From IMG/VR virus record IMGVR_UViG_3300036940_000262: a DNA stretch of 64,000 bases; one strand, 5' to 3'. The notes below the pieces were generated by a model. That model ran no database searches. It was not told the origin of the DNA and saw only the letters and a program-made list of their open reading frames with translations. Numbering within the stretch: position 1 is the stretch's first letter; each line of letters opens with the position of its first letter. The stretch comes from an uncultured virus (IMG/VR IMGVR_UViG_3300036940_000262) (taxonomy: Duplodnaviria > Heunggongvirae > Uroviricota > Caudoviricetes). The position numbers and the translations under genes were made by a program. Below are positions 21,431 to 47,436 of the stretch, piece by piece.

Positions 21431-22273
21431 ATGGGGTATAAAACAGAACCTTTCCTAACATGGGCAGGTGGTAAAGGACAGTTATTAACAATACTAAAAG
21501 AAATGTTACCTGAAAATATTGGAAAGTTCTACGAGCCTTTCATCGGTAGCGGTGTGTTGCTACTAGATTTAAAACCTGAAAATGCTGTTATAAATGATAA
21601 CAATAAACAGCTTCTCAATGTATATAGACAGTTGAAAAAAGATGCGGAGTCTGTAATCAGAGAGGTGAATTTATTAGATTCGGTAACTTGTGATGAGGAA
21701 AGATATCTTGAGGTTAGATATGATTACAACGAAATGATAAGGGGTAGCATACTTGATGCAGAGTGTGCAGCCCACATGATTTGGATAAACAAGCATTGTT
21801 TCAGCGGGCTATACAGAGTTAATTCAGAGGGGTTGTTTAATGTAACATACAACAACAAAGCAATAGGTTCTTCTATTAATGCAGATAATCTTAGGAATAT
21901 TGGCATGTACTTAAAAAGTAACGATATAGATATACGGCAAGGGGACTTTGAGGATGCTTGTCATGATGCTGTGTCTGGAGATTTTATATACTTTGACTCA
22001 CCGTACTTTCCTTTAAATGAGACAGCTAACTTTACAGACTACACAAAAGAGGGTTTCTCTATGAAAGACCATGAGAGGCTGGCAAGGTTAGCGAAACAGC
22101 TAGACAGTAAAGGGGTAAAAGTGATGCTAAGTAATCACGATGTACCACTTATATATGAGTTGTATAAAGGTTTTAATATAGAAACAGTTGATGTTCAAAG
22201 GTTAATAAGTCGGGACACCTCTAAACGGTTATGTAAAGAGGTAATCATAACAAATTATTGGAAGTGGGGTTGA
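21431..22273 (+). CDS. Dam/D12-class N6-adenine DNA methyltransferase
   Basis: WAGGK, EPFIGSG, FSGLYRVN, motif IV DSPY, VMLSN, EVII. Confidence 0.92.
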   Translation: MGYKTEPFLTWAGGKGQLLTILKEMLPENIGKFYEPFIGSGVLLLDLKPENAVINDNNKQLLNVYRQLKKDAESVIREVNLLDSVTCDEERYLEVRYDYNEMIRGSILDAECAAHMIWINKHCFSGLYRVNSEGLFNVTYNNKAIGSSINADNLRNIGMYLKSNDIDIRQGDFEDACHDAVSGDFIYFDSPYFPLNETANFTDYTKEGFSMKDHERLARLAKQLDSKGVKVMLSNHDVPLIYELYKGFNIETVDVQRLISRDTSKRLCKEVIITNYWKWG

Positions 22274-22274
22274 A

Positions 22275-23030
22275 ATGCATTATTTCGGTGGAAAAGCAAA
22301 AATAAGTGAGGAGTTGAGTTCTTTCTTAAACAGCGAGTTAGAAGACGATCAACCTTTTGTAGATTTATTTTGTGGAAGTTGTAACATTATATCTAAGATA
22401 GATTCAAACAGGTTAAGAATAGCAAACGATAAACATAAGTATCTGATAGCAATGTGGAAGGGTTTACAGGATGGTTTTGAACCACCAAAAGATATATCTC
22501 TTGAACAATATCAAGAGATACGAGAAAATTTAGATGTAAACCCTGCGCTTAGTGGATTTGTTGGTTTTGGTTGCAGTTATGCAGGTAAGTGGTTTGACTC
22601 TTTTGCTAAGTCCGACGATGGGAGACCATACTCTCTAAATGCCTACAACTCTACAAAAAGAAAATTTGAGTCATTAAAAGATGTCCAATTTTACAATTAC
22701 GACTATCGAGAACTAGATATTCCAGAGGGTTCTCTTGTATATTGCGACATCCCGTACAGGGGTACAGGACAATATTGTAAAGAGGAGGTTGGAGTATTTG
22801 ATCATGACGACTTCTATAAATGGGTTGATGAGAACTGTCTTAAGTACAAAATCTATATCAGTGAGTATGTCCAAAATACTCCAAAGAATTACGATGTTGT
22901 GTGGATGAAAAGAAGTAAACAAGATATGAGGAACAGTTTAAACAAAAATAATGCTACTCAAGAGGTTTTGCTTGTTTGTAAAACTACTGAAACAGGCGAG
23001 TTATTGACTAGCGAGTTTTCTTGGATGTAA
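22275..23030 (+). CDS. Second D12-class N6-adenine DNA methyltransferase
   Basis: YFGGK, DLFCGS, IAND, motif IV DIPY, ISEY. Confidence 0.88.
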   Translation: MHYFGGKAKISEELSSFLNSELEDDQPFVDLFCGSCNIISKIDSNRLRIANDKHKYLIAMWKGLQDGFEPPKDISLEQYQEIRENLDVNPALSGFVGFGCSYAGKWFDSFAKSDDGRPYSLNAYNSTKRKFESLKDVQFYNYDYRELDIPEGSLVYCDIPYRGTGQYCKEEVGVFDHDDFYKWVDENCLKYKIYISEYVQNTPKNYDVVWMKRSKQDMRNSLNKNNATQEVLLVCKTTETGELLTSEFSWM

Positions 23031-23139: not shown

Positions 23140-25197
23140 ATGTCAAATAAAAATGCGTACGATAATAATTCAATTGACCAGTTAGTTGGGGCGGCTAGAA
23201 TCAGAAACCAACCGCAGGTAATGTTAGGTTCAAAAGGATTAGAAGGAGCACAACATACATTCTTTGAAATTGTAGGTAATGCCACAGATGAGCATCTTTC
23301 GGGGTATGGGGATAGACTGGATATTTGTTTATATGATGATGGTGCGATATCTGTAAGAGATTATGGTCGAGGTGTACCTCTTGGTTGGAATGAAAAAAGA
23401 CAAGCATGGAACTACTTCCTTATCTATGAGGAGCTGTATGCTGGCGGTAAATACGATGCTGTTAAAGCAAAAGAGGTTTTGAAACAGTTTTGGGATAACG
23501 GAAACTGGGAAGACTTTAATATCAAAGACTATCCGTACATCATTTCTGTAGGTTTACATGGTCTTGGAGCAGCCGCAACTCAATGTTCATCAGAGTACTG
23601 CGAAGTTTCTTCTTACAGAGATGGTGTGAAAAGCACAATGAAATATGAGAAGGGTGCAAGTGTCTTAGAAGAACTGATTGTTGAAGACACTAACGAGGAG
23701 AACGGCACATTCGTTAAATGGAAACCTGATAAAGAGGTATTTACCGATGTAAACATAACAGCGAAATGGTTAGAGGGTGCAGTAAAGACACTATCAACTG
23801 TTTCGGGGTTCTCAGTTACTTTCAACAATAAAGGGGTAGAGAAAGAGTTCCCACACACTACTATTGAAGAACAACTTAAATCTGAATTGGGTGGTAGTGT
23901 AGTATTTAGCAGTAAGTTTTATCCTAGTCTTGTAAGTGAAGACGAGGTAGGAATCTGTTATGTAGATATTGCTTTGGGTGAAGGTAGTAGAAGTAACGAT
24001 TACTTTCACAATATGGTAAGAGTAAGAGGGGGGGTACATTCTTCTGCTTCAAACTTTGCTGAATCAGATTTCTTTAACAAAAGAGCAAAAGAGGAAGAAA
24101 TCAGATTAAAGGCTGTTGACTATTCAGGTCGGCTATCCTGTATTATTTCTACCTTATCTAACATTGTATCTTATCGTGGTCAAACAAAAGACAGCTTAGA
24201 CGACCATTATGTTTACAAGGCAATTGAAAAGACAATGACAGATATGTTAATAGAAGAATGGGATAAGCAATCTAAGTGGTTAGTAGACCTTGTAGACGAT
24301 GTTATGGCTCAGGCTAGAAATCGAATTGCAATTGAAGCCTTATCTAAAGACGTAAAAAGCGTTGAGAAAACTCTTAAAACATCTAAACCTTCTGAGAAAT
24401 TCAAGTCGTGTGATGCTTATGAAAAGAAGGATTACAACGAAGCTGAATTGTGGATATTTGAGGGAGATTCAGCCGGAACATCTGGTAAAAATGCAAGAGA
24501 TTCCAGATATCAATGTATCCTTCCAATCAGGGGTAAATCTCTAAACGTATTTAAAGCTACTATTCCAAAGATTTTAGCAAACACTGAGATTAAAGATATT
24601 GCAACAATCTTAGGGTGTGGCGTAGATTTAGGTTTAGATGAGGTTGAGTTTTTCGACATAAATAAATTAAAAGTTGGAAAAGTCATTATAGGGGCTGATG
24701 CGGATATTGATGGTATGCATATTCGTATGCTGGTATTTTTAATCTTCTACAAACTATTTCCTGAACTGCTTTACAATGGTTTAGTGTATGTAGCAGACAC
24801 ACCAAAGTTTGTAATCGTAACAAAAAATGATGAATCCATATACTGCTTAGATGACAATGAGGTAGATGAAAAGCGTCAAGAAATTGGTAGCGGAAACATT
24901 AAAGAGATTACACGATTTAAAGGTTTAGGTGAAATGAATCCAGATCAGCTTTGGTCTACAACAATGAATCCAGATAGCAGACAACTAACTCAAATCAAGA
25001 TTGACAAGAACGACCTTGACATCTACAATACATTGGAAGTGCTGTTTGGTAAGTCAACAGATAGAAGAAAGAAAGCAATCTTAGGTTCAATGATGGGTGC
25101 GACATTTGATGATGTTATGGAGAACATCTTTGATATGGTAGAATACATTGATACATTAGGGTTAAGTGACGTTGAGTATGAGGAAGTGGCAATGTAG
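23140..25197 (+). CDS. Type IIA topoisomerase subunit B (GyrB/ParE-like)
   Basis: EIVGNATDE, DYGRGVP, AGGK, GLHGLG, EGDSA, PIRGK, DADIDG and RFKGLGEM. Confidence 0.95.
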   Translation: MSNKNAYDNNSIDQLVGAARIRNQPQVMLGSKGLEGAQHTFFEIVGNATDEHLSGYGDRLDICLYDDGAISVRDYGRGVPLGWNEKRQAWNYFLIYEELYAGGKYDAVKAKEVLKQFWDNGNWEDFNIKDYPYIISVGLHGLGAAATQCSSEYCEVSSYRDGVKSTMKYEKGASVLEELIVEDTNEENGTFVKWKPDKEVFTDVNITAKWLEGAVKTLSTVSGFSVTFNNKGVEKEFPHTTIEEQLKSELGGSVVFSSKFYPSLVSEDEVGICYVDIALGEGSRSNDYFHNMVRVRGGVHSSASNFAESDFFNKRAKEEEIRLKAVDYSGRLSCIISTLSNIVSYRGQTKDSLDDHYVYKAIEKTMTDMLIEEWDKQSKWLVDLVDDVMAQARNRIAIEALSKDVKSVEKTLKTSKPSEKFKSCDAYEKKDYNEAELWIFEGDSAGTSGKNARDSRYQCILPIRGKSLNVFKATIPKILANTEIKDIATILGCGVDLGLDEVEFFDINKLKVGKVIIGADADIDGMHIRMLVFLIFYKLFPELLYNGLVYVADTPKFVIVTKNDESIYCLDDNEVDEKRQEIGSGNIKEITRFKGLGEMNPDQLWSTTMNPDSRQLTQIKIDKNDLDIYNTLEVLFGKSTDRRKKAILGSMMGATFDDVMENIFDMVEYIDTLGLSDVEYEEVAM

Positions 25198-33991: not shown

Positions 33992-34510
33992 ATGGTAGAT
34001 TACAGTAAGATATTTCCGTTGGCTGAATACTATGAAAAAGTAGTTATGCCAATTGATAAGAAATACAGATATCGTAAAAGCGATAACAAGTTTATCTGTT
34101 GTTTACACAATGATAAAGACCCTTCACTAGGTATCGTAAAGTCTAAAAGTAAAGGCGAGGAGTTCCATTGTTTTGGTTGTAACTCTTGGAATAATGTAGT
34201 AGACTTCCACATGAAAGTTTCTTATATGTACTATAATAAGCTATTTGCCAGTAAAGACTTAGCTATTAAAGACTTATGTAGAATATTTGAGGTAGACTAC
34301 AAAGATGTCCCCGTAGAATCTTTATTAGAAAACTCTGAGGATAAAGCTTTTAGAAAGGAAGTGGCCTTAATGGATGCTGTTCAGCAGTGGAATTTTGGCG
34401 ATTTCAAAGTAGGGGTTGAACAAGGAAAGCTAGAACAAAGAGGGGTAGCATACTTTAATGAATTAATGATAAGGATGGTGGATGTGGTAAAATGTCAGAA
34501 TCAGAATTAG
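33992..34510 (+). CDS. Stand-alone CHC2 primase zinc-binding-domain protein
   Basis: CCLHNDKDPSL...FHCFGC...VVDF matches the DnaG zinc finger; no TOPRIM domain follows. Confidence 0.85.
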   Translation: MVDYSKIFPLAEYYEKVVMPIDKKYRYRKSDNKFICCLHNDKDPSLGIVKSKSKGEEFHCFGCNSWNNVVDFHMKVSYMYYNKLFASKDLAIKDLCRIFEVDYKDVPVESLLENSEDKAFRKEVALMDAVQQWNFGDFKVGVEQGKLEQRGVAYFNELMIRMVDVVKCQNQN

Positions 34511-35418
34511 AATTAGACTGTGGAATAGAGGATGGTTTTGAGTGTGTTACTACAACAAGGTCAATATTCGATGTAGTTCCCAGAGAAGGGGTATTCTTAG
34601 GATTAGACATATCTAAAACATCATCAGGGGTTACACTAATTGACAACAGTAAACATCAAGACTTGACAATAACTCTTGAAGATGTGAACAGTAAACATAG
34701 TGAAGTTTTGTTAAGACGACAATTAAAAGAACGGCTAGCACCGATAGTAGTCGGCAGACATTTTGATTTAATTATAGTAGAGGACGCCTTTCAAGGGGAT
34801 AACCCTAATGTAACAAGACTTTTATACAGCCTTAACACTGTAATAGACGAATTTATCGTAGATGGTGAGTGTACTTGTGATGTGTTTATGCGAGAGGACA
34901 ATCAGAGGTGGAAGAAGTGGTTATTTACATTAGACAGCACAAACAGTCACAAAGGTTATAATGACAAGGTGAGGATAGAATACTGTTTAAGCCTCTTAGG
35001 GGTAAAAAGAGACGGATCTAAAGGTTTTCAAGATAAACTAGACAGTCTAGGGTTAATCGTAAGTTATTTCTTGAGAAGTGCTGAAGATTTAGTGGAAAAT
35101 TCTATAAGTAAGGTATTGGGTAGAAGAGTCAGGTTTTCAGACATAAGTTTTTCTTACCAATATTTTGAAGAGGATGTGTTCTTTGGACTAGATTCAGAGG
35201 TATTTGAGAAGGGGTATCAGGTAGAAACAAGAGTAAGAGTTTTCACTAAAAAGAAAATGACAAAGATGCTAACAGAAAATCCACAAAGTATATTTATGAC
35301 TCATAAACGAGTTGTATTAGGTGCATTTGCTGAGGAGTTAAAACTAGACTCAAATATGCCAGAGGGTTACTTTGCTTTTTGGATTGGTAAGAATTTAGAC
35401 AGGTATTTAGAGATGTAG
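34492..35418 (+). CDS. RuvC-like Holliday junction resolvase with C-terminal extension
   Basis: FLGLDISKTSSG, IIVED, WKK and DKLDS acidic triad pattern. Confidence 0.75.
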   Translation: MSESELELDCGIEDGFECVTTTRSIFDVVPREGVFLGLDISKTSSGVTLIDNSKHQDLTITLEDVNSKHSEVLLRRQLKERLAPIVVGRHFDLIIVEDAFQGDNPNVTRLLYSLNTVIDEFIVDGECTCDVFMREDNQRWKKWLFTLDSTNSHKGYNDKVRIEYCLSLLGVKRDGSKGFQDKLDSLGLIVSYFLRSAEDLVENSISKVLGRRVRFSDISFSYQYFEEDVFFGLDSEVFEKGYQVETRVRVFTKKKMTKMLTENPQSIFMTHKRVVLGAFAEELKLDSNMPEGYFAFWIGKNLDRYLEM

Positions 35419-35475
35419 TACGAGAAAGGGGAAAACAACAGTTAAAATAAATTTATAAAAATCTAAAGAAATATG

Positions 35476-35503
35476 TTGATTAATATCATAAAAGTGTTAT
35501 AAT
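35476..35503 (+). promoter_or_regulatory. SigA-type promoter of IS607 tnpA
   Basis: TTGATT-N16-TATAAT with extended -10 TG; RBS GAGGTG downstream. Confidence 0.65.
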
Positions 35504-35523
35504 TATCACAGAGGTGATAAGAA

Positions 35524-36150
35524 ATGAAATATTATTCAATAGGTGAGTTTTCAAGGTCAATAGGAAAAACTCCACAAACATTAAGAGATTGGCATAAAAA
35601 AGGTATTTTTATACCGAGCCATGTAACAGATGGTGGAACTAGATATTATTCACAGGAACAATTAAATCATTTTTTAGGCATAAAAGGTGAAAAACCTAAA
35701 AACAAAAAAATTATAGGCTACTGTAGAGTTTCAAGTAATAAACAAAAAGATGACCTAGAAAGACAGGTCGAGAATGTAAAGACCTATATGATAGCCAAAG
35801 GATACTCTTTTGATGTTATAACAGACATTGGAAGTGGAATTAACTATAACAAAAAAGGATTAAATCAATTAATAGACTTAATAACTAATTCAGAAGTTGA
35901 AAAAATAGTAGTGTTATACAAAGATAGATTGCTAAGATTCGGTTTTGAATTGATAGAAAATCTGTGTGAAAAATATGAAACAGTTATAGAAATCATAGAT
36001 AATACCGAAAAAACAGAAGAACAAGAGTTGGTCGAGGATTTAATACAAATAGTTACAGTTTTTAGTTGTAGATTACAAGGTAAAAGAGCCAATAAAGCTA
36101 AAAAGATGATAAAAGGGTTGTTGGAAGATGATACTAGCGAAAAAAGTTAG
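35524..36150 (+). CDS. tnpA: IS607 transposase (MerR-like HTH plus serine recombinase)
   Basis: N-terminal TLRDW...GGTRYY HTH; YCRVSS, DIGSG, DRLLRFGFE and ELVEDL. Confidence 0.95.
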   Translation: MKYYSIGEFSRSIGKTPQTLRDWHKKGIFIPSHVTDGGTRYYSQEQLNHFLGIKGEKPKNKKIIGYCRVSSNKQKDDLERQVENVKTYMIAKGYSFDVITDIGSGINYNKKGLNQLIDLITNSEVEKIVVLYKDRLLRFGFELIENLCEKYETVIEIIDNTEKTEEQELVEDLIQIVTVFSCRLQGKRANKAKKMIKGLLEDDTSEKS

Positions 36151-37243
36151 ATTATTGCCTACAGAAAAACAAGAGCAACAACTTTGGAAGTCTGTAGGTA
36201 CAGCAAGATTTATTTATAACTGGACACTTAATAAACAAGAAGAAAACTACAAAAACGGTGGCAAGTTTATAAGTGATAATGATTTAAGAAAAGAATTAAC
36301 AATATTAAAACAAGACGAGTTAAGGTGGCTTAGTGAAGTATCTAACAATGTTGCTAAACAAGCAGTAAAAGACTGTTGTAATGCTTATAAGCGATTTTTT
36401 AAAGGACATTCAAAAAAGCCTAGATTCAAAAGTAGGCGTAAAAGCAAAAAGTCTTTTTATAATGATACTGAAAAGTTAAAAGTCAAAGAAAATAAGCTTG
36501 TTTTAATAGAAAAAGTAGGTTGGTTAAAAACAAACGAGCAGTTACCAATAGGGGTAAAATACACAAACCCTAGAATAAGTTATGACAATAAGTATTGGTA
36601 TATATCCGTTGGAATAGAACAAGACGAAATTAAAGAAGATTTAACAGATGTTTCTCTGGGTATTGATTTAGGACTAAAAGAATTGGCAGTATGTTCTAAT
36701 GGAGATGTTTATAAAAACATTAATAAAACCCCAGCAGTGAGAAAATTAGAGAAGAGATTAAAAAGATTACAAAAACAGGTAAGTAGAAAATATGAAAAAA
36801 ATAAAAAAGGAAAGGAGTTTGTCAAAACAAAAAATATTATAAAGCTTGAAAAACAGATACAACTAATACATAGACGATTAGCAAATATAAGAAATAATTA
36901 CATTCATCAAACAACTACAAGCATAGTGAAAACCAAACCTTGCAAAATAGTAATTGAAGATTTGAATGTAAAAGGAATGATGAAAAATAAACATTTATCG
37001 GATAGCATAAGGAAACAAAGTTTCTATGAATTTAGACGACAGTTAGAATATAAATCTAAATTTAGAGGGATTGAATTAATTGTAGCAGATAGATTTTATC
37101 CGTCATCAAAAACTTGTAGTTGCTGTGGGAATATCAAGACAGATTTAAAACTTAAAGATAGAGTTTATAACTGTGAATGTGGTTTTACCGTTGACAGAGA
37201 TTTAAACGCAAGTATCAATCTTTCGAGATATAAATTAGCTTAA
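36128..37243 (+). CDS. tnpB: RNA-guided nuclease TnpB
   Basis: RFIYNW HTH; RuvC motifs GIDLG, IEDL and DRDLNA intact; Zn finger CSCC...CEC. Confidence 0.95.
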   Translation: MILAKKVRLLPTEKQEQQLWKSVGTARFIYNWTLNKQEENYKNGGKFISDNDLRKELTILKQDELRWLSEVSNNVAKQAVKDCCNAYKRFFKGHSKKPRFKSRRKSKKSFYNDTEKLKVKENKLVLIEKVGWLKTNEQLPIGVKYTNPRISYDNKYWYISVGIEQDEIKEDLTDVSLGIDLGLKELAVCSNGDVYKNINKTPAVRKLEKRLKRLQKQVSRKYEKNKKGKEFVKTKNIIKLEKQIQLIHRRLANIRNNYIHQTTTSIVKTKPCKIVIEDLNVKGMMKNKHLSDSIRKQSFYEFRRQLEYKSKFRGIELIVADRFYPSSKTCSCCGNIKTDLKLKDRVYNCECGFTVDRDLNASINLSRYKLA

Positions 37244-37410
37244 AGTCACTTTAAAGACTAAGTTAATATGTAGGATTCGTTGTATCCGAATTTACGCCTT
37301 TGGAGTGTTATACAAACTAAAGTAGGTAATTACTTATAATTATCAAAATAGAACACGTTGAAAAAGGAATTAAACAAGATTTATAGATTTTTATAGATTT
37401 TTGGCAACGG
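37244..37410 (+). ncRNA. Putative TnpB omegaRNA scaffold
   Basis: Structured non-coding right end after tnpB, containing GAATTTACGCCTTTGGAG...GAAAAAGGAA. Boundaries are approximate. Confidence 0.65.
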
Positions 37411-37416
37411 AAAGTT

Positions 37417-37653
37417 TTGGCAATAGCAAAAAGAGATCAAATAAGTGCATTTATAAACTATATTGGCGGTTGTAGTGATTTAATCTATGTTGACGATAGC
37501 GGTGAGCGGGAATCTCAACATGTATGTACAAACGGTGATAAAGTATTAATACTTGGTAGACAAATTGCTTCTGTTTTTGTGTTTGGTGAAATGTTTACCT
37601 TCGAGTACTATAAATGTCCTAACTGTGGAAAAGTACTTTTATACAAGTACTAG
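37417..37653 (+). CDS. Small Zn-ribbon protein
   Basis: TTG start; HVC and CPNC motifs; its original RBS appears to lie on the far side of the IS. Confidence 0.65.
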   Translation: MAIAKRDQISAFINYIGGCSDLIYVDDSGERESQHVCTNGDKVLILGRQIASVFVFGEMFTFEYYKCPNCGKVLLYKY

Positions 37654-37666
37654 AAAGGGGTCATTA

Positions 37667-38347
37667 TTGAGAGTTAAAGAGGTTGAGGATTATTTCACAA
37701 GTCTCAACACTTCTTTAACATACTGCCCGGACAGCGTTATACGAACGTATATGTCAAGGGTTTCTATGAGTGATAAACAGGAAAAAGGTAGATTTAAAAA
37801 GAGTAAAGTCAGGGTTGTGTCAGAAACAAATCATTCACTGAGAGTGGGGTTGCTGTGCAGGTCTTTTGTATCAGATATGCTTCATGCAGGAGACTCTTTT
37901 CAGAACTTTATGTATGTTTCAGGATTGTTGCATGACATTGGCAAACAAGGAGTACCTTCAAGTATTCTAACAAAAGCGTGTAAATTAACTGAGGATGAGT
38001 GGGTTATCGTTAAAAACCATTCTAAACTTGGTGCAGACCTCTTAGCAAGTTCTTTAGCTTTTCATAAGTATGCTGAGGTGGTACTACACCATCATGAGAG
38101 GGAGGATGGTTCTGGTTATCCAAATAACTTAACATCCAAGGAAATTTGTATTGGTTCTAAGATATTGTGCATCGTAGATTCTTTCGATGCAATGATAAGT
38201 AAAAGAGCATACAGTGATGCTATGAATGTAAATCATGCAGTTGATGAGTTACAAGAAAACTCAGGGGTACTATTTAACAAAGATATTTGTTCAATGTTTA
38301 CTGATTTTGTTTCAAACAATTGCAAAAATATGTTTGAAGTGGGGTAA
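37667..38347 (+). CDS. Stand-alone HD-GYP cyclic-dinucleotide phosphodiesterase
   Basis: HSLRV, LHDIGK, HHHEREDGSGYP and DSFDAM. Start moved from 37553 to TTG 37667 after RBS AAAGGGG. Confidence 0.9.
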   Translation: MRVKEVEDYFTSLNTSLTYCPDSVIRTYMSRVSMSDKQEKGRFKKSKVRVVSETNHSLRVGLLCRSFVSDMLHAGDSFQNFMYVSGLLHDIGKQGVPSSILTKACKLTEDEWVIVKNHSKLGADLLASSLAFHKYAEVVLHHHEREDGSGYPNNLTSKEICIGSKILCIVDSFDAMISKRAYSDAMNVNHAVDELQENSGVLFNKDICSMFTDFVSNNCKNMFEVG

Positions 38348-38356
38348 AAATATCTA

Positions 38357-38392
38357 AACAAGGTTATATTAGCATCTGTAATGTTGTATAAT
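38357..38392 (+). promoter_or_regulatory. Element-type promoter AACAAGGT-N22-TATAAT
   Basis: Recurrent motif upstream of the micropeptide ORFs. Confidence 0.72.
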
Positions 38393-38432
38393 AGTCACAT
38401 AAGATAAAGAAAGCGTAATGGAGGTGCAGTAT

Positions 38433-38456
38433 ATGGCTAGAGATCGACCTGAGTGA
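38433..38456 (+). CDS. Micropeptide MARDRPE (7 aa)
   Basis: RBS GGAGGTG 6 nt before ATG; paralogous to 38526..38567. Confidence 0.55.
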   Translation: MARDRPE

Positions 38457-38525
38457 GTTTTTTTAATATGTGATATAGTAGAGAGTATAAACAAATAAAA
38501 ATTTTATATAAGGAGGTGAGTGCGT

Positions 38526-38567
38526 ATGGCTAGAGGACGACCTTTAGAAACTACAATTAAATTATAA
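38526..38567 (+). CDS. Micropeptide MARGRPLETTIKL (13 aa)
   Basis: RBS AAGGAGGTG 7 nt before ATG; paralogous to 38433..38456. Confidence 0.55.
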   Translation: MARGRPLETTIKL

Positions 38568-38794
38568 TTAAATAAGATCCGGCGGGGCAACTATAAAATC
38601 AATATAATCCCGTATAAGACACCATACAATATCAGGGTGTATAATAAAATATTAAAAACGTTCTGTGCGAATTGCCCAATAGTGCGGAACATGATTTTCC
38701 AGAAGTATTCTATAATATTGTGTTGTTGGTTTGGTATCAGAGTTGATTAACAAGAGTGTTACTCCGTAGACAAAATGCTAACTCTTTTGTGTAG

Positions 38795-38826
38795 AGCAGT
38801 CATATTTAAAATGACTGCTTTTTTTA
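38795..38826 (+). terminator. Intrinsic terminator
   Basis: AGCAGTCAT/ATGACTGCT stem with T tract. Confidence 0.85.
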
Positions 38827-38930
38827 TTGCACACTATTTTGGTGAGAGGAAATTTCTATATTATAATTAATAGGTAAAGGTGGTTAAATAAGTATTTATT
38901 AGTATAATACAAGTAAACAAGGAGAGTTGA

Positions 38931-40289
38931 ATGGAAATTAAAGATGAGTTAAAAAACAATCCGCAGTTGCTGGAGGAGTTTGATGAAATATTTGACAACG
39001 AAGAAAAAGTGTCAATGGTGTTAAACTTAAAAAAGGATTCCTGCACAAGAACTATTAAGGATGTCCTATTTAATGAACTTGCATCTACTGAACCTATAAA
39101 GAACAGTAGAAGTGAAACATATTTAGGTTTATCAAAATCTGTACTAGAGCTTGGTATATTGTCACCCATTCATGTAATGGTAACAGAAGGGTATGCTGAG
39201 TGGTTAGAGGAAGGTCAACCAGGTGTGTTTACTGAAAGTAAGTACCTTATTATAGACGGTTTCAGGAGAGTATATGCGGGGTTAAAAGCGGGTTTAGAAG
39301 GGTGTAGAGCAGTAGTATGGGACTTTAAGGATAAAGATGAGGGTAGTCAAATACTGACTTCTTTATCAAGAGTATTAAACAAAACTCAAAAACATTCATG
39401 GAATGAGATTTGGTTTCTTCATCAAGTTTTAGAAATAAACTACAATCTAAGTCCGGGAACTTTAGAATACCTGTTGCAGATAGAGCTAGGGGACTCTATG
39501 AGATTAAAAGACATTATGACTTGTGATTATCCGGAGGTAAGGGATGAGTTGAGAGCAGGTAATAAGACTTTAATGCAGTGTTATACAATGCTTCAAAAGC
39601 TAAGAAAAGAAGAAGATATGTTGTTGCACGATGATGCGACAGGGGTATCAAGTGTTGATAGAAACAATGTATTGGGTTCTGAAATGTCTGGGTTAAAACC
39701 ACCAACATTAACTGACGATGAAGTTAAAGAGGTTATGGATATGGTTTCAGACTACGATGGCAGCTTATCTGATGATGACTTTGATGAGTTGATGGGTAAC
39801 AATGTACCTGATGAAAGACAGATGGTAGGTGAACGACATCCATTAGACCCAGCATTAAAAGCTGAAACATTATTACGGGACGAGTATAAGTGTGTTTGTT
39901 GTGGTAGAGGAGATGGATACCCTATAAAATATGCTTTGTCTATACTAAATAGCCACCATAAAGTATCAGTAGCAAATGGGGGTAAAGACACTGCAGAGAA
40001 CATAGCAACATTATGTCAAGTATGTCACACAATGGTTCACACCCTGCTTAAAAACTATTTGAAATTTGGTATGTCAAAAGAAACTTTTGATGAACTGCCA
40101 GAGGATACACAGGAATCCTTAAAGAAGATAATGAAATTAGCAAGAATCGACTACGAGGTAGGGGTACGATTAGGGAAAAATGCTAATGACTTTAAAGAAG
40201 CTAATAAAAACAACTTAAAATTCCGTATGCCGGGAGCTGATTTAAAAGATAACTTAGATGCTCTTAAACAAAGTGGTGTAATAAAATAG
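38931..40289 (+). CDS. ParB/Srx N-terminal domain fused to an HNH endonuclease
   Basis: GILSPIHV...IIDGFRR (ParB-N); CVCC...HHK....GG....N...LCQVCH...H (HNH). Confidence 0.85.
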   Translation: MEIKDELKNNPQLLEEFDEIFDNEEKVSMVLNLKKDSCTRTIKDVLFNELASTEPIKNSRSETYLGLSKSVLELGILSPIHVMVTEGYAEWLEEGQPGVFTESKYLIIDGFRRVYAGLKAGLEGCRAVVWDFKDKDEGSQILTSLSRVLNKTQKHSWNEIWFLHQVLEINYNLSPGTLEYLLQIELGDSMRLKDIMTCDYPEVRDELRAGNKTLMQCYTMLQKLRKEEDMLLHDDATGVSSVDRNNVLGSEMSGLKPPTLTDDEVKEVMDMVSDYDGSLSDDDFDELMGNNVPDERQMVGERHPLDPALKAETLLRDEYKCVCCGRGDGYPIKYALSILNSHHKVSVANGGKDTAENIATLCQVCHTMVHTLLKNYLKFGMSKETFDELPEDTQESLKKIMKLARIDYEVGVRLGKNANDFKEANKNNLKFRMPGADLKDNLDALKQSGVIK

Positions 40290-41711: not shown

Positions 41712-41719
41712 TATTACAC

Positions 41720-41753
41720 TAAAAGATAAGGTTAAACACCTTATCTTTTATTT
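41720..41753 (+). terminator. Intrinsic terminator, possibly bidirectional
   Basis: TAAAAGATAAGGT/ACCTTATCTTTTA perfect stem. Confidence 0.8.
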
Positions 41754-41755
41754 AT

Positions 41756-41791
41756 AACAAGGTGTTTTTAAGAGTATTTAAAATGTAAAAT
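41756..41791 (+). promoter_or_regulatory. Element-type promoter AACAAGGT-N22-TAAAAT
   Basis: Recurrent motif directly after a terminator. Confidence 0.7.
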
Positions 41792-41864
41792 AGTCTTTAG
41801 TAGGAAAGAGGAAAAAAGGTTTTCCTGCAGAGCATGATTAAGTAAGGTTCTAAGAAGAAAGGCT

Positions 41865-41974
41865 TGCTGAAATTCGGGGCATATTTGCCCTGTAGTGGCT
41901 TTTTTAGAGTTTTTAAGGTAGGGCTGAGGGCGGTATAAAAAAGCTTTAAAAAAGGCATTAATCGAAAATTTTAG
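41865..41974 (+). repeat. Long imperfect palindrome related to 25491-25603
   Basis: TTTTTTAGAGTTTTT/AAAAAGCTTTAAAAAA arms with outer CTGAAATT/AATTTTAG. Confidence 0.5.
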
Positions 41975-41978
41975 GAAT

Positions 41979-42908
41979 GTGAGAGGATGTGTAAGTATGT
42001 TAGTTGAGACATTAGTAGAGAACTATGAGGAGTTAGGGTTGCCAGAGGAGTTTGTTGATATTCTTCCAATATACTGTCCCTCTTGCGGTAGTATGATGGA
42101 GATAGGTGAGGCATTGACAGGGTTATCTTGTTCAAATCAAAGATGTGTAGATAAGTTAGTCATGCGAATCAAAGGAATCTGTAAGGCTTTAAATATAACA
42201 GATTTTGGTGAAGCGACTATTGAGAAGTACATTCTGGATAGAGGCATAACAAATCATTTAGAAATGTTTGCTTTGGATGAGGGAGAATTGCTGTATGATG
42301 GAGCATCTGAAAAGATTTCAGATAAGGTAACAAGTCAGATAGAACAGCATAAAGAGTGGGTTTTGTGGGAATTTATTCAGATTGCAAACCTTCCTTTTAT
42401 ACAGACATCAGCAAGAAAAATATTTCAGGGGTATACGGATATTTATGAAGCCTATGATGAAATTACAGACGGTGGTGTAGAATTTATACAAGAGAAGTTG
42501 GGTATAAACGATTCTGAAACATTATCTGTTCAAGCCTTAAAGATTTATGGTGTTTTAAAAGATTTTGAACAGGACTTAAAAGATGCTGTAGATAATTATA
42601 TAACTCTTATAGATTTAGGTGATATTGTAGAGTTAAATGTTGTTTGTTCTGATCAAGTAGGTGGTGGTTTCTCTAAAAAATCTGAGTTTTACAACTATGT
42701 TTCTAGTGAGTACGGTAGTCGAGTTAAAGTGCATTTTCTATCTTCTGTAAATAAAACGATAGACTATCTTGTTTGGGCGGGTGCTGATGGCTCAGATGCT
42801 AGATACACCTCAAAAGTCAAGAAAGTAGAGGGGTACAACGATAAAGGTTGTGATATTCCTATTGTTACTGCAACAGACTTTATTGAAACATTAGAGGAGT
42901 TATATTAA
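41979..42908 (+). CDS. C-terminal half of an NAD-dependent DNA ligase (Zn finger, HhH, BRCT)
   Basis: PIYCPSCG...CSNQRC; ALNITDFGEATI (HhH); SSVNKTIDYLV...SKVKK...IPIV...DF (BRCT). Likely start ATG 41997. Confidence 0.8.
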   Translation: MRGCVSMLVETLVENYEELGLPEEFVDILPIYCPSCGSMMEIGEALTGLSCSNQRCVDKLVMRIKGICKALNITDFGEATIEKYILDRGITNHLEMFALDEGELLYDGASEKISDKVTSQIEQHKEWVLWEFIQIANLPFIQTSARKIFQGYTDIYEAYDEITDGGVEFIQEKLGINDSETLSVQALKIYGVLKDFEQDLKDAVDNYITLIDLGDIVELNVVCSDQVGGGFSKKSEFYNYVSSEYGSRVKVHFLSSVNKTIDYLVWAGADGSDARYTSKVKKVEGYNDKGCDIPIVTATDFIETLEELY

Positions 42909-46146: not shown

Positions 46147-47436
46147 ATGAAGATAGTGGATATGCTTGAGTTCGTAGATAAGTATGGATTCGAGGGATTT
46201 GATGATGAGAAGATAGAAGAACTTGAAGGGGTTATCATAGACTTAAATAAGTCTATGAATGACCCCGAAGCTGTTCTTGTAGCAGATGGCATTTACGATG
46301 CTCTTTTCGACTTATTGAAACGTTTAAAACCTGATGCAGATGTTTTAAACACAATATGGGAAGAGGATGGAGATATTACAGATTACACAGACTTATTGGT
46401 AAGAAATCCAATGATGTCTATTGAGACTGCAAAATCTTTTGATTGTCCAGAAATATTGCAGTTTGTAGACAGGTTACCTGATACAGCAGATTATATGGCA
46501 TCTTTTAAGTTGAACGGTCATGGTATTAGAATTGTTTATGAAGACGGTTTACTTGTATCGGCAACTTCAAGAGCAAGAAGTAGTGCTGGTAGAGATTTGA
46601 CAGAGCATATGAAACATATACTAGGTGTTTACAACGAATCATTAGAGGATTATGGTCTTGTAGAAATTAGAGCAGAAGCAGTATTAAGAACTTCATTAAT
46701 GTCTGAGGCTAGGGAGTTTAACAGCTCATTAAAATCTCCATTCTCTGCTGTAGCATCTCTTATGAGACAGTCTGCAACAGAAGAGGAAGTTAAACTACTT
46801 AGCGTAATCTGCTATAAAGTGTTGAGCGATAACTTGGATTTTGAGACATTGTCTGAGGAATACAGTTTCTTAGAGGACTGTGGTTTTGAAGTGCCTGAAC
46901 ATGGTGTTATCAGTAACTTAGGTAGAGAGAGTATTATCGGATTTCTTGAGGAAACTTTAATACCTGACTTAGAAAACCTTTATGAGGAGTATGATTATTT
47001 TTGTGATGGTATCGTGTTTGGTTTGAATGATTCTGAAGAATTTAATAGTTTAGGTTCTGAGGGTAAAAGTAATAATGGAAACATCGCATTAAAAGTAGGT
47101 GTGTGGAAACAAGATGTTTACACTGGAATTGTTAATAAAATTATTTGGACAAGGGGTAAAAACAAACTATCTCCTGTGGCAATTGTTAGTGAAAACTACG
47201 GTGATTTAGAGGAGATTGATGGTAAGTACGAGAATTTAAACGATATTGGAATCCTGACAATTCAAGGAAATAAGGTTAAAAGAGTGCCTTTGTACGAACC
47301 TAAAAATATTTTAATACTTGAATGTTATGAGGGAGAGCCTTTAAGTTTTCGTTACGGTGGAGAAGCAGGGGTAGTTCCTTGTTTTTCAGATGGTAGATTG
47401 CTTAAAGAGGATGTTGCTAGGGAGATTTTAACATGA
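46147..47436 (+). CDS. N-terminal half of an NAD-dependent DNA ligase (Ia, adenylation and OB domains)
   Basis: D..YD.L, PMMSI, motif I KLNG, GRDLT, EIRAE, DGIV, IALK and LSPVA; ends after motif VI with no Zn/HhH/BRCT. Confidence 0.85.
   Translation: MKIVDMLEFVDKYGFEGFDDEKIEELEGVIIDLNKSMNDPEAVLVADGIYDALFDLLKRLKPDADVLNTIWEEDGDITDYTDLLVRNPMMSIETAKSFDCPEILQFVDRLPDTADYMASFKLNGHGIRIVYEDGLLVSATSRARSSAGRDLTEHMKHILGVYNESLEDYGLVEIRAEAVLRTSLMSEAREFNSSLKSPFSAVASLMRQSATEEEVKLLSVICYKVLSDNLDFETLSEEYSFLEDCGFEVPEHGVISNLGRESIIGFLEETLIPDLENLYEEYDYFCDGIVFGLNDSEEFNSLGSEGKSNNGNIALKVGVWKQDVYTGIVNKIIWTRGKNKLSPVAIVSENYGDLEEIDGKYENLNDIGILTIQGNKVKRVPLYEPKNILILECYEGEPLSFRYGGEAGVVPCFSDGRLLKEDVAREILT

Follow-up and report, generated by a model that had tools for sequence, protein, structure and literature searches.

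The locus described here is a pair of very short open reading frames (ORFs), each behind a strong Shine-Dalgarno (SD) sequence, in a 64,000-nucleotide (nt) stretch of DNA, hereafter the window, from the uncultured virus IMGVR_UViG_3300036940_000262 (Caudoviricetes), and two described systems come closest to it. The first is the bar minigene of phage lambda, whose two bar regions share a short near-identical sequence. In the excerpts of PMC8012679 and PMC2490762 drawn on here, a bar minigene is an SD followed by AUG AUA UAA, which encodes a dipeptide and causes peptidyl-tRNA drop-off that is toxic in pth-deficient Escherichia coli. The present locus resembles this system in being phage-encoded, in placing a very short ORF with its stop directly behind an SD, in occurring in more than one copy and in having no obvious protein product. 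However, its ORFs have 7 and 13 codons instead of specifying a dipeptide, there is no sequence similarity, and the host of this phage is presumably of a different, low-GC lineage.

The second system comprises the 5′ mRNA stabilisers of Bacillus and its relatives, one of which Hue et al. are said to have described from phage SP82 in 1995. The excerpts of PMC3997798 and PMC5737220 used here name the cryIIIA STAB-SD, the ermC and ermA leaders and hbs as examples, and according to the former, a strong SD placed close to the 5′ end makes long untranslated RNAs stable in Bacilli, whether or not a start codon comes with it; a ribosome bound at such a site can shield the untranslated RNA downstream. 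The likeness lies in a very strong SD near the 5′ end (a predicted end in this case) and in a productive ORF being optional. The difference is that there are two modules here, each with a full mini-ORF and conserved first codons. This precedent comes from Bacilli, and the type of decay in which it operates may not be that of the host of this phage.

A third comparison, with Arbitrium AimP and Phr peptides, goes no further than the fact that small phage-encoded ORFs are involved, and such a system was ruled out. An earlier note on this DNA had already set the ORFs apart from precursors of this type, and rightly so, since their products of 7 and 13 amino acids (aa) have no signal sequence and no hydrophobic leader. 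The ORFs are far shorter than those of AimP or Phr, their neighbours encode an HD-GYP phosphohydrolase and a protein with ParB_N and HNH domains (ParB_N+HNH), and there is neither a secreted pro-peptide nor an adjacent receptor gene.

The repeated initiation module and its predicted transcript

The two "micropeptide genes" of the earlier note may be better regarded as two copies of one module, composed of a very strong SD, a spacer, an AUG and the next five codons. The SD followed by ATGGCTAGAGnnCGACCT was read twice on the plus strand (38420-38450 and 38512-38543), and the starts of the two mini-ORFs are 93 nt apart. The features of the unit are as follows:

38357..38392, plus strand: phage promoter motif, AACAAGGT-N22-TATAAT, one of six motif sites in the window
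38420..38426, plus strand: SD 1, GGAGGTG, 6 nt ahead of the ATG
38433..38456, plus strand: mini-ORF 1, MARDRPE, 7 sense codons, stop TGA
38457..38509, plus strand: spacer between the units
38510..38519, plus strand: SD 2, AAGGAGGTGA, core GGAGGTG at 38512-38518, 7 nt ahead of the ATG
38526..38567, plus strand: mini-ORF 2, 13 sense codons, stop TAA
38568..38792, plus strand: predicted transcript body without ORF, including an internal sigma-70-like site
38793..38829, plus strand: intrinsic terminator, 11-bp stem then T run (terminator scan, scan site 38793-38821)

Unit 1 has the layout GGAGGTG-cagtat-ATGGCTAGAGATCGACCT-GAG-TGA, with the codons ATG GCT AGA GAT CGA CCT GAG TGA, and encodes MARDRPE*. 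Unit 2 has the layout GGAGGTG-agtgcgt-ATGGCTAGAGGACGACCT...TAA, with the codons ATG GCT AGA GGA CGA CCT TTA GAA ACT ACA ATT AAA TTA TAA, and encodes MARGRPLETTIKL*.

The two units agree at 7/7 positions of the SD and then at 16/18 positions from the ATG, and there is no similarity before or beyond. The regions 5′ of the two SDs were no more alike than shuffled sequence (477/1000 shuffles scored as high), and the tails after codon 6 were equally shuffle-like (289/500 shuffles). These tests confirmed that two related units with mini-ORFs and strong SDs lie 93 nt apart and that their similarity is restricted to the ribosome-binding site and six codons, as the earlier note had stated, and a tandem duplication of a larger unit was ruled out because nothing outside the SD and codons 1-6 is shared.

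The 18-mer ATGGCTAGAGNNCGACCT, with up to 3 mismatches allowed, had just two matches on both strands of the 64 kb, and two or more matches were obtained in 0/100 shuffles, although the pattern was derived from the same data. An unbiased test was weaker: an ungapped direct repeat of 16/18 arose in 5/300 dinucleotide shuffles of the 583-nt gap that contains the unit. Partial cores of the repeat gave no further copy in the 64 kb on either strand, and no complementary copy was found there. GGAGGTG itself occurs five times on the plus strand of the window, and an ATG follows 6-7 nt downstream only at these two sites. Taken together, the SD, the spacing, the ATG and the repeat are far beyond chance. 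The full 7-mer was found in 0/55 long genes of the window, the 10-mer AAGGAGGTGA is single in it, and no other SD there is as strong as these two copies.

Synonymous sites are identical between the copies at all four comparable codons (GCT, AGA, CGA, and CCT). AGA is the commonest arginine codon in the window (57%) and CGA accounts for 10% of arginine codons; with this codon usage, the chance of matching codon choices is ~2% if the copies are old and only the peptide was selected. The sole differing codon among the first six, GAT (D) vs. GGA (G), alters the residue. Four identical synonymous sites and a codon change that alters the residue indicate constraint, or recency of the copy, at the nucleotide level and not specifically at the peptide level. 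The stretch from the SD to about +18 is roughly that covered by an initiating ribosome. Because the extent of the repeat approximates this footprint, the two modules can be viewed as ribosome-loading units. The 43-nt region of unit 1 was also unusually open, as 199/200 shuffles folded at least as well (z = +1.97).

The unit lies in the gap 38348-38930, which is the largest in the window at 583 nt, all other gaps being ≤440 nt. The promoter motif upstream of unit 1 follows the pattern AAC(A/T)AGGT-N22-23-TA(T/A)A(A/C)T. A pattern search of the window gave six sites (21351, 23064, 38357, 41756, 45795, and 63338), all on the plus strand and each upstream of a gene start, and the reduced pattern AGGT-N22-23-TAWAMT recovered exactly those six and none besides. 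Several of the six copies come just after terminators. The conserved upstream box is ~5 nt farther from the -10 than a normal -35, and this spacing suggests a phage-encoded sigma factor or activator. The -10 is 40 nt from the ATG in unit 1 and 41 nt from it in the topoisomerase gene at 23140; thus, unit 1 sits where a gene start is expected for this promoter class. Judging from the motif, transcription is predicted to start near 38399-38401, and SD 1 would begin ~20 nt from the 5′ end. The terminator is the only terminator-like site that the scan found in 37200-39000, and within the predicted RNA of ~430 nt no ORF exceeds the two mini-ORFs in length. The promoter motif at 38357, the terminator and the lack of a long ORF in the unit all agreed with what had been claimed before. 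The internal sigma-70-like site (AAGACA-18-TATAAT, 38616-38645, plus strand) could yield a ~180-nt RNA ending at the same terminator; it may be a chance occurrence.

At gathering thresholds, the Rfam search of the whole window returned just RAGATH-18 at 37297-37369, and a permissive scan of 37200-39000 produced only chance-level matches inside the gap. The Guanidine-II (mini-ykkC) riboswitch (RF01068) was rejected, as its match scored 14.7 bits against a gathering threshold of 32 (E = 6.1) and covered unit 2 alone; it also failed on the loop, which in unit 1 is AUCGA, not ACGR. The folds of units 1 and 2, of the body and of the whole 441 nt were no more stable than those of shuffles. An inverted repeat (38395-38408/38460-38473) flanks unit 1; its 3′ arm is changed in the sister-strain contig from metagenome run X3, and no change is listed for its 5′ arm.

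Sister strains and the corresponding slot in related phages

Near-identical DNA occurs in several subsurface and related metagenome runs. The 58.8-kb contig from run X3 covers 34400-35511, omits 1049 nt of an IS607 element and covers 36561-40282, where it differs from the window by 50 substitutions and 7 gap letters. These differences were listed position by position up to 38501, and the remaining 24 substitutions lie within 38502-40282. There were 8 substitutions in the 1865 nt of 36561-38425, followed by 3 consecutive ones at 38426-38428, in the spacer between SD 1 and its ATG. None was found in 38429-38462, which contains ORF1, its stop and a T run. Further on, a C is inserted after 38463 and 15 substitutions fall in 38465-38501, which makes the spacer 38463-38501 a non-coding divergence hot spot (15 substitutions and one insertion in 39 nt). 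In all, 18/76 flank positions differ around an unchanged unit 1. The X3 contig is collinear at the unit, with no deletion between the direct repeats.

A 529-nt contig from run X5 has 7 of the changes of X3 in common and lacks the rest. It represents a mosaic intermediate haplotype, and this partial sharing means that there are at least three haplotypes. A second patch of 12 substitutions, mostly spaced in multiples of three, was found at 34578-34698 inside a 308-aa gene, indicating that the strains differ by imported diverged tracts. The strains (X3 and X5) are otherwise ~99% identical and their differences are gathered in short dense patches, which suggests that recombination with diverged relatives occurs on a fine scale or that diversifying pressure acts locally. 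If one tract spans 38426-38501, unit 1 was conserved where free positions differ by ~40%, which would be unlikely by chance (estimated as 0.65^34). Read in this way, the X3 comparison argues with moderate strength for selection on unit 1.

Homologues of the ParB_N+HNH gene downstream of the unit, with 50-62% identity, occur on many 100-300-kb contigs. An alignment of 29 of them led to 47 related loci, on 1 IMG/VR contig, 44 metagenome contigs and 2 contigs of metagenome-assembled genomes (MAGs). The closer relatives share the order primase-like gene, 308-317-aa gene, 78-135-aa gene (homologue of 37417-37653), a gene here named X225, ~100 nt holding a terminator and a promoter, and ParB_N+HNH. 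In the closest relative (L007, 62% identity), the end of an X225-type gene, a terminator and a promoter lie within the 232 upstream bases. X225 encodes ~210-240 aa directly upstream of ParB_N+HNH in loci L008-L024, L030, and L051 (e.g., L010:4206-4889). It is fast-evolving, with 12-48% identity among distinct types, whereas the neighbouring ParB_N+HNH stays at 45-62%, and a Pfam family was assigned to 0/12 members of its alignment. More distant relatives have other genes in the X225 slot. Judged from gene order, the promoter, 430-nt body and terminator of the window are the positional equivalent of the promoter, X225 and terminator of the relatives. No X225 remnant was detected in six frames of 37200-39000 by tblastn with 15 proteins or by a 16-sequence hidden Markov model, nothing falling below E = 0.28. 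The HD-GYP gene is itself absent from the slot in the relatives, and a relationship between X225 and HD-GYP was ruled out (hhalign probability 0.7%).

The module was not recovered from these relatives. A start reading M-A-R-(G/D)-R-P, or a looser variant, was present in 0/47 related loci on both strands, so the MARxRP frame is not conserved in related elements, an outcome that the earlier note had named as refuting its reading; the relatives lack the whole unit, which leaves room for a lineage-specific function. A pair of mini-ORFs with strong SDs upstream of ParB_N+HNH was seen in none of the 15 distant loci (of the 47) that were examined, and the degenerate start ATGGCNMGNGRNMGNCCN was found neither in the 140-kb IMG/VR relative G003 nor in the two MAGs. 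The pattern GGAGGTG-N5-8-ATGGCTAGAG is carried by 110 IMG/VR loci: one of these (L132) starts MARGRP and continues as a long ORF of >136 aa, and 11 are ORFs of ≤40 aa, with MAR(G/D)RP in none of those 11. No match was obtained by blastn of 37400-39400 against phages or of the gap against plasmids, and blastn of the gap against the 47 related loci gave chance matches only. Single-protein scans of IMG/VR with HD-GYP and with ParB_N+HNH found nothing.

The 18-mer had five exact matches in IMG/VR, and two of them were true starts of terminase small-subunit genes according to PHROGs (L003 and L005). Phage small-terminase and helix-turn-helix proteins that begin with MARGRP resemble the modules in their first six codons, which are identical in L003 and L005, and the long ORF of L132 likewise begins with MARGRP. 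However, such proteins have 120-170 aa or more with a DNA-binding domain, whereas the frames here stop at codons 8 and 14. On these matches, MARGRP is nothing unusual as the N-terminus of a known class of phage proteins, but here no such protein follows it. No literature linking MARGRP with the terminase small subunit was found.

The identity of ORF2 as a terminase small subunit was rejected, as its read-through had no PHROG or Pfam match and no true homologue among 1.84 billion representatives. The frame of ORF2 has only two in-frame TAA stops across 38526-38867. A decayed gene after ORF2 was also rejected, since the read-through (with stops as X) matched no PHROG or Pfam family; its one match among the representatives was a 3126-aa repeat protein, sharing a short Cys/Trp motif that spans the stop, and was judged spurious. 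In X3 and in a further run, X6, 1-nt deletions at 38717 and 38720 break the long open frame downstream of ORF2, which argues against a hidden gene in this position. On the minus strand, a 33-aa hydrophobic ORF (MFRTIGQ...) runs from 38692 down to 38591 with a weak SD in T-rich antisense sequence. It was considered as a type-I-toxin-like gene and set aside, the weak SD and the T-rich antisense making it probably a chance ORF.

Possible functions of the unit

The explanation that we favour, although tentatively, is that the modules are selected and translated as minigenes and act in cis on a small RNA through ribosome loading; this is the branch of the earlier interpretation that proposed a leader or cis-acting short ORF. 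The modules would head an orphan RNA of ~430 nt, running from a phage-specific promoter to an intrinsic terminator, and the unit was probably assembled from what remained after the loss of an X225-type gene or of a later cassette. Selection would keep the modules for ribosome loading, the minigenes of 7 and 13 codons would be translated, and bound or translating ribosomes would act in cis on the RNA, with the peptides as by-products. The best-documented effect of this kind in a low-GC Gram-positive-type host is the shielding of downstream RNA from 5′-to-3′ decay (a "5′ stabiliser"), and the unit may work in this way. We infer transcription, translation and selection from the signals in the DNA and, most tentatively of all, the stabiliser role.

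Several observations weigh against this explanation. A stabiliser needs the SD alone, so that the identity of codons 2, 3, 5, and 6 and the presence of two modules are left unexplained. The body of the RNA has no significant structure (z = -0.04 to -1.0) and belongs to no Rfam family. If the change at 38426-38428 in X3 arose independently, finding 0 changes over 34 nt matches the genome-wide baseline of ~0.4% and is uninformative, and the differences listed for X3, which go to 38501, bear on unit 1 and not on unit 2. The module is also unique to this lineage: a MAR(D/G)RP mini-ORF is held by 0/47 related loci and by 0/110 IMG/VR loci, and comparative support comes from one sister strain.

A more specialised function seems unlikely, namely that the phage devotes a promoter of its own to a small RNA in which nothing is conserved except two tandem "super" ribosome-binding modules with their minigenes of 7 and 13 codons, forming a purpose-built device for engaging ribosomes or tRNA. 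Such a device would be either the Gram-positive counterpart of lambda bar or a stabiliser or decoy RNA of a new class that depends on ribosomes. The hypervariability of the spacer beside such a device may reflect an arms race with the host.

The main rival, possible if doubtful, is that the modules are non-functional relics: the promoter, the translation-initiation region (TIR) and the terminator would be left over from a lost gene, the second start would be a scar of local duplication or recombination, and translation would be incidental. The slot in the relatives consists of promoter, X225 and terminator, X225 has gone here without trace, and the region has taken other insertions, IS607 and HD-GYP. 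Strong SDs precede the X225 genes of every relative viewed, and comparison of the X225 TIR of L010 and L051, GGAGGTGCAGTgATATG, with unit 1, GGAGGTGCAGTATATG, shows that SD 1 may be inherited. The identical synonymous sites (~2% chance if old) fit a recent copy and not an ancient coding constraint, the differences between the copies form two clusters (the spacer and codon 4) that may represent 2-3 multi-nucleotide events comparable to 38426-38428 in X3, and the unit is missing from all relatives examined. However, no X225 protein begins with MARxRP, and neither the 47 loci nor the 140-kb G003 contain a MARxRP gene. The placing of a 31-nt duplication 62 unrelated nucleotides away needs a special mechanism, and useless close direct repeats should vanish quickly, yet X3 retains the arrangement and has unit 1 unaltered between diverged flanks. 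Moreover, in a window so densely coded, 430 nt of useless sequence that still has its promoter and terminator intact would be unusual.

These two explanations differ in what the locus would mean. If the modules are selected as ribosome-loading minigenes, the phage would be using complete TIRs as RNA-level devices and not for protein; gene callers do not see features of this kind, which may be widespread in non-coding gaps of other large phages. If the modules are relics, the locus shows turnover in a hyperplastic slot, in which X225 was lost and HD-GYP and IS607 were gained while a scaffold of promoter, TIR and terminator survived. The locus may be summarised as an orphan transcription unit that is peculiar to this lineage and bears two strong-TIR minigenes in tandem.

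That the peptides themselves are the product is improbable. They could act as an AT-hook-like RGRP binder, as a ligand of the HD-GYP enzyme, or as a minigene of the lambda bar type, disturbing translation in the host through peptidyl-tRNA drop-off. The SDs and their spacing are ideal, MAR-x-RP is common to both copies, and ORF2 holds RGRP (RDRP in ORF1), R-G-R-P being the core motif of the AT-hook. The lambda bar minigenes offer a phage precedent for an SD with a very short ORF (excerpt of PMC8012679), and in the part of PMC2490762 used here drop-off is greater the shorter the minigene is, between 8 and 2 codons; the 7 sense codons of ORF1 fall between these lengths. However, the 13-codon ORF2 is beyond this range of 2-8 codons (same part of PMC2490762), and AGA, with 57% of arginine codons, is not a "hungry" codon. 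The conservation between the copies is at the nucleotide level, and the one codon that differs specifies another amino acid. Neither a signal sequence nor a nearby receptor gene is present, and no related peptide was found in any relative examined.

The link to HD-GYP, which the earlier note had proposed, found no support. A gap of 13 nt separates the HD-GYP gene from the 78-aa gene upstream of it, and the HD-GYP gene ends ahead of the promoter motif, which places it in the preceding operon, outside the mini-ORF unit. The gene is lineage-specific, and the slot belongs to X225. HD-GYP homologues are ubiquitous, being present in 351/401 genomes of one phylum, and a MARxRP search of the 30 best loci (97 kb) from these 401 genomes, the test that the earlier note had suggested, found none (0/30). 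Nothing beyond coincidence stands behind the remark in the earlier note that peptide 1 contains DRP while the HD-GYP segment that usually reads MTSDRPY is MISKRAY here. The pairing of the peptides with HD-GYP is not worth pursuing on present evidence.

Still less probable is a role as attenuator leader peptides, whose translation would decide between a stop at 38793-38829 and read-through into ParB_N+HNH. The arrangement of short ORFs upstream of a terminator, with a conserved same-strand gene 100 nt further on, would suit such a role. However, 226 nt separate the stop of ORF2 from the terminator stem, a distance too great for direct control by a ribosome, no significant alternative structures were seen (folds no better than shuffles), and the ORFs lack any run of regulatory codons. 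The ParB_N+HNH gene is preceded by its own promoter-like site (AAAGGT-N21-TATAAT, ending at 38910) and its own SD, and the relatives have the same gene behind a terminator without such a leader.

A nucleic-acid binding site, with the repeats as operators, iterons or translational operators for a phage protein such as the adjacent ParB-like one, or as RNA targets, is very improbable, as there are only two copies and no full, partial or complementary copy elsewhere in the 64 kb, the motif is not palindromic, the exact geometry of SD, spacer and ATG is unexpected for a DNA operator and relatives with the same ParB_N+HNH gene lack the repeat, even though conservation at the nucleotide level includes all synonymous positions, the two direct copies are 93 bp (~nine helical turns) apart and the unit lies in the replication module beside a gene with a ParB_N domain.

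Genomic neighbourhood and minor observations

Placement of its proteins in a protein database showed that the window is part of a 181,661-bp contig. Its long ORFs are all on the plus strand and tightly packed, and PHROGs assigned topoisomerase II subunits, DnaB-like and other helicases, DNA polymerase, primase, ligase, dUTPase, and methyltransferases. By these families, the window holds the genes for DNA replication, as a module, of a large phage of ~180 kb. The genes around the unit are as follows:

33992-34510, plus strand: primase-like gene
34492-35418, plus strand: 308-aa gene
35524-36150, plus strand: IS607-type tnpA, MerR and serine resolvase
36128-37243, plus strand: IS607-type tnpB, with a Cas12f1-like TNB domain
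37297-37369: RAGATH-18 RNA, associated with IS607 TnpB (Rfam, 71 bits), just downstream of tnpB
37417-37653, plus strand: 78-aa gene
37667..38347, plus strand: HD-GYP phosphohydrolase gene, TTG start (Pfam HD_5, 1.9e-29)
38931..40289, plus strand: ParB_N+HNH core gene (Pfam)

The IS607-type element sits between the conserved 308-aa and 78-aa genes. The X3 contig lacks 35512-36560 (1049 nt), which indicates a deleted IS607 copy in the sister strain.

The HD-GYP protein has the motif HHExxDGxGYP, and its first ~50 residues match nothing. Its best non-self homologue is bacterial, with 46% identity over 55% of the query. By these comparisons, it is a lineage-specific extra gene without phage relatives, and it is a candidate phage-encoded c-di-GMP phosphodiesterase.

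Three further features were observed elsewhere in the window. Behind the promoter motif at 41756 there is a 267-nt leader (41712-41978) with a GC-rich hairpin and a T run (GGGGCATATTTGCCC...TTTTTT); the ligase-like gene at 41979 comes next, and the leader may be an attenuator or another RNA element. The NAD-dependent DNA ligase is apparently split into two separate genes, ~3 kb apart and in swapped order: compared with phrog_3869, the piece at 41979-42908 corresponds to the C-terminal positions 391-653 and the piece at 46147-47436 to the N-terminal positions 5-331. Two neighbouring DNA methyltransferase genes, both of phrog_56, are located at 21431-23030.

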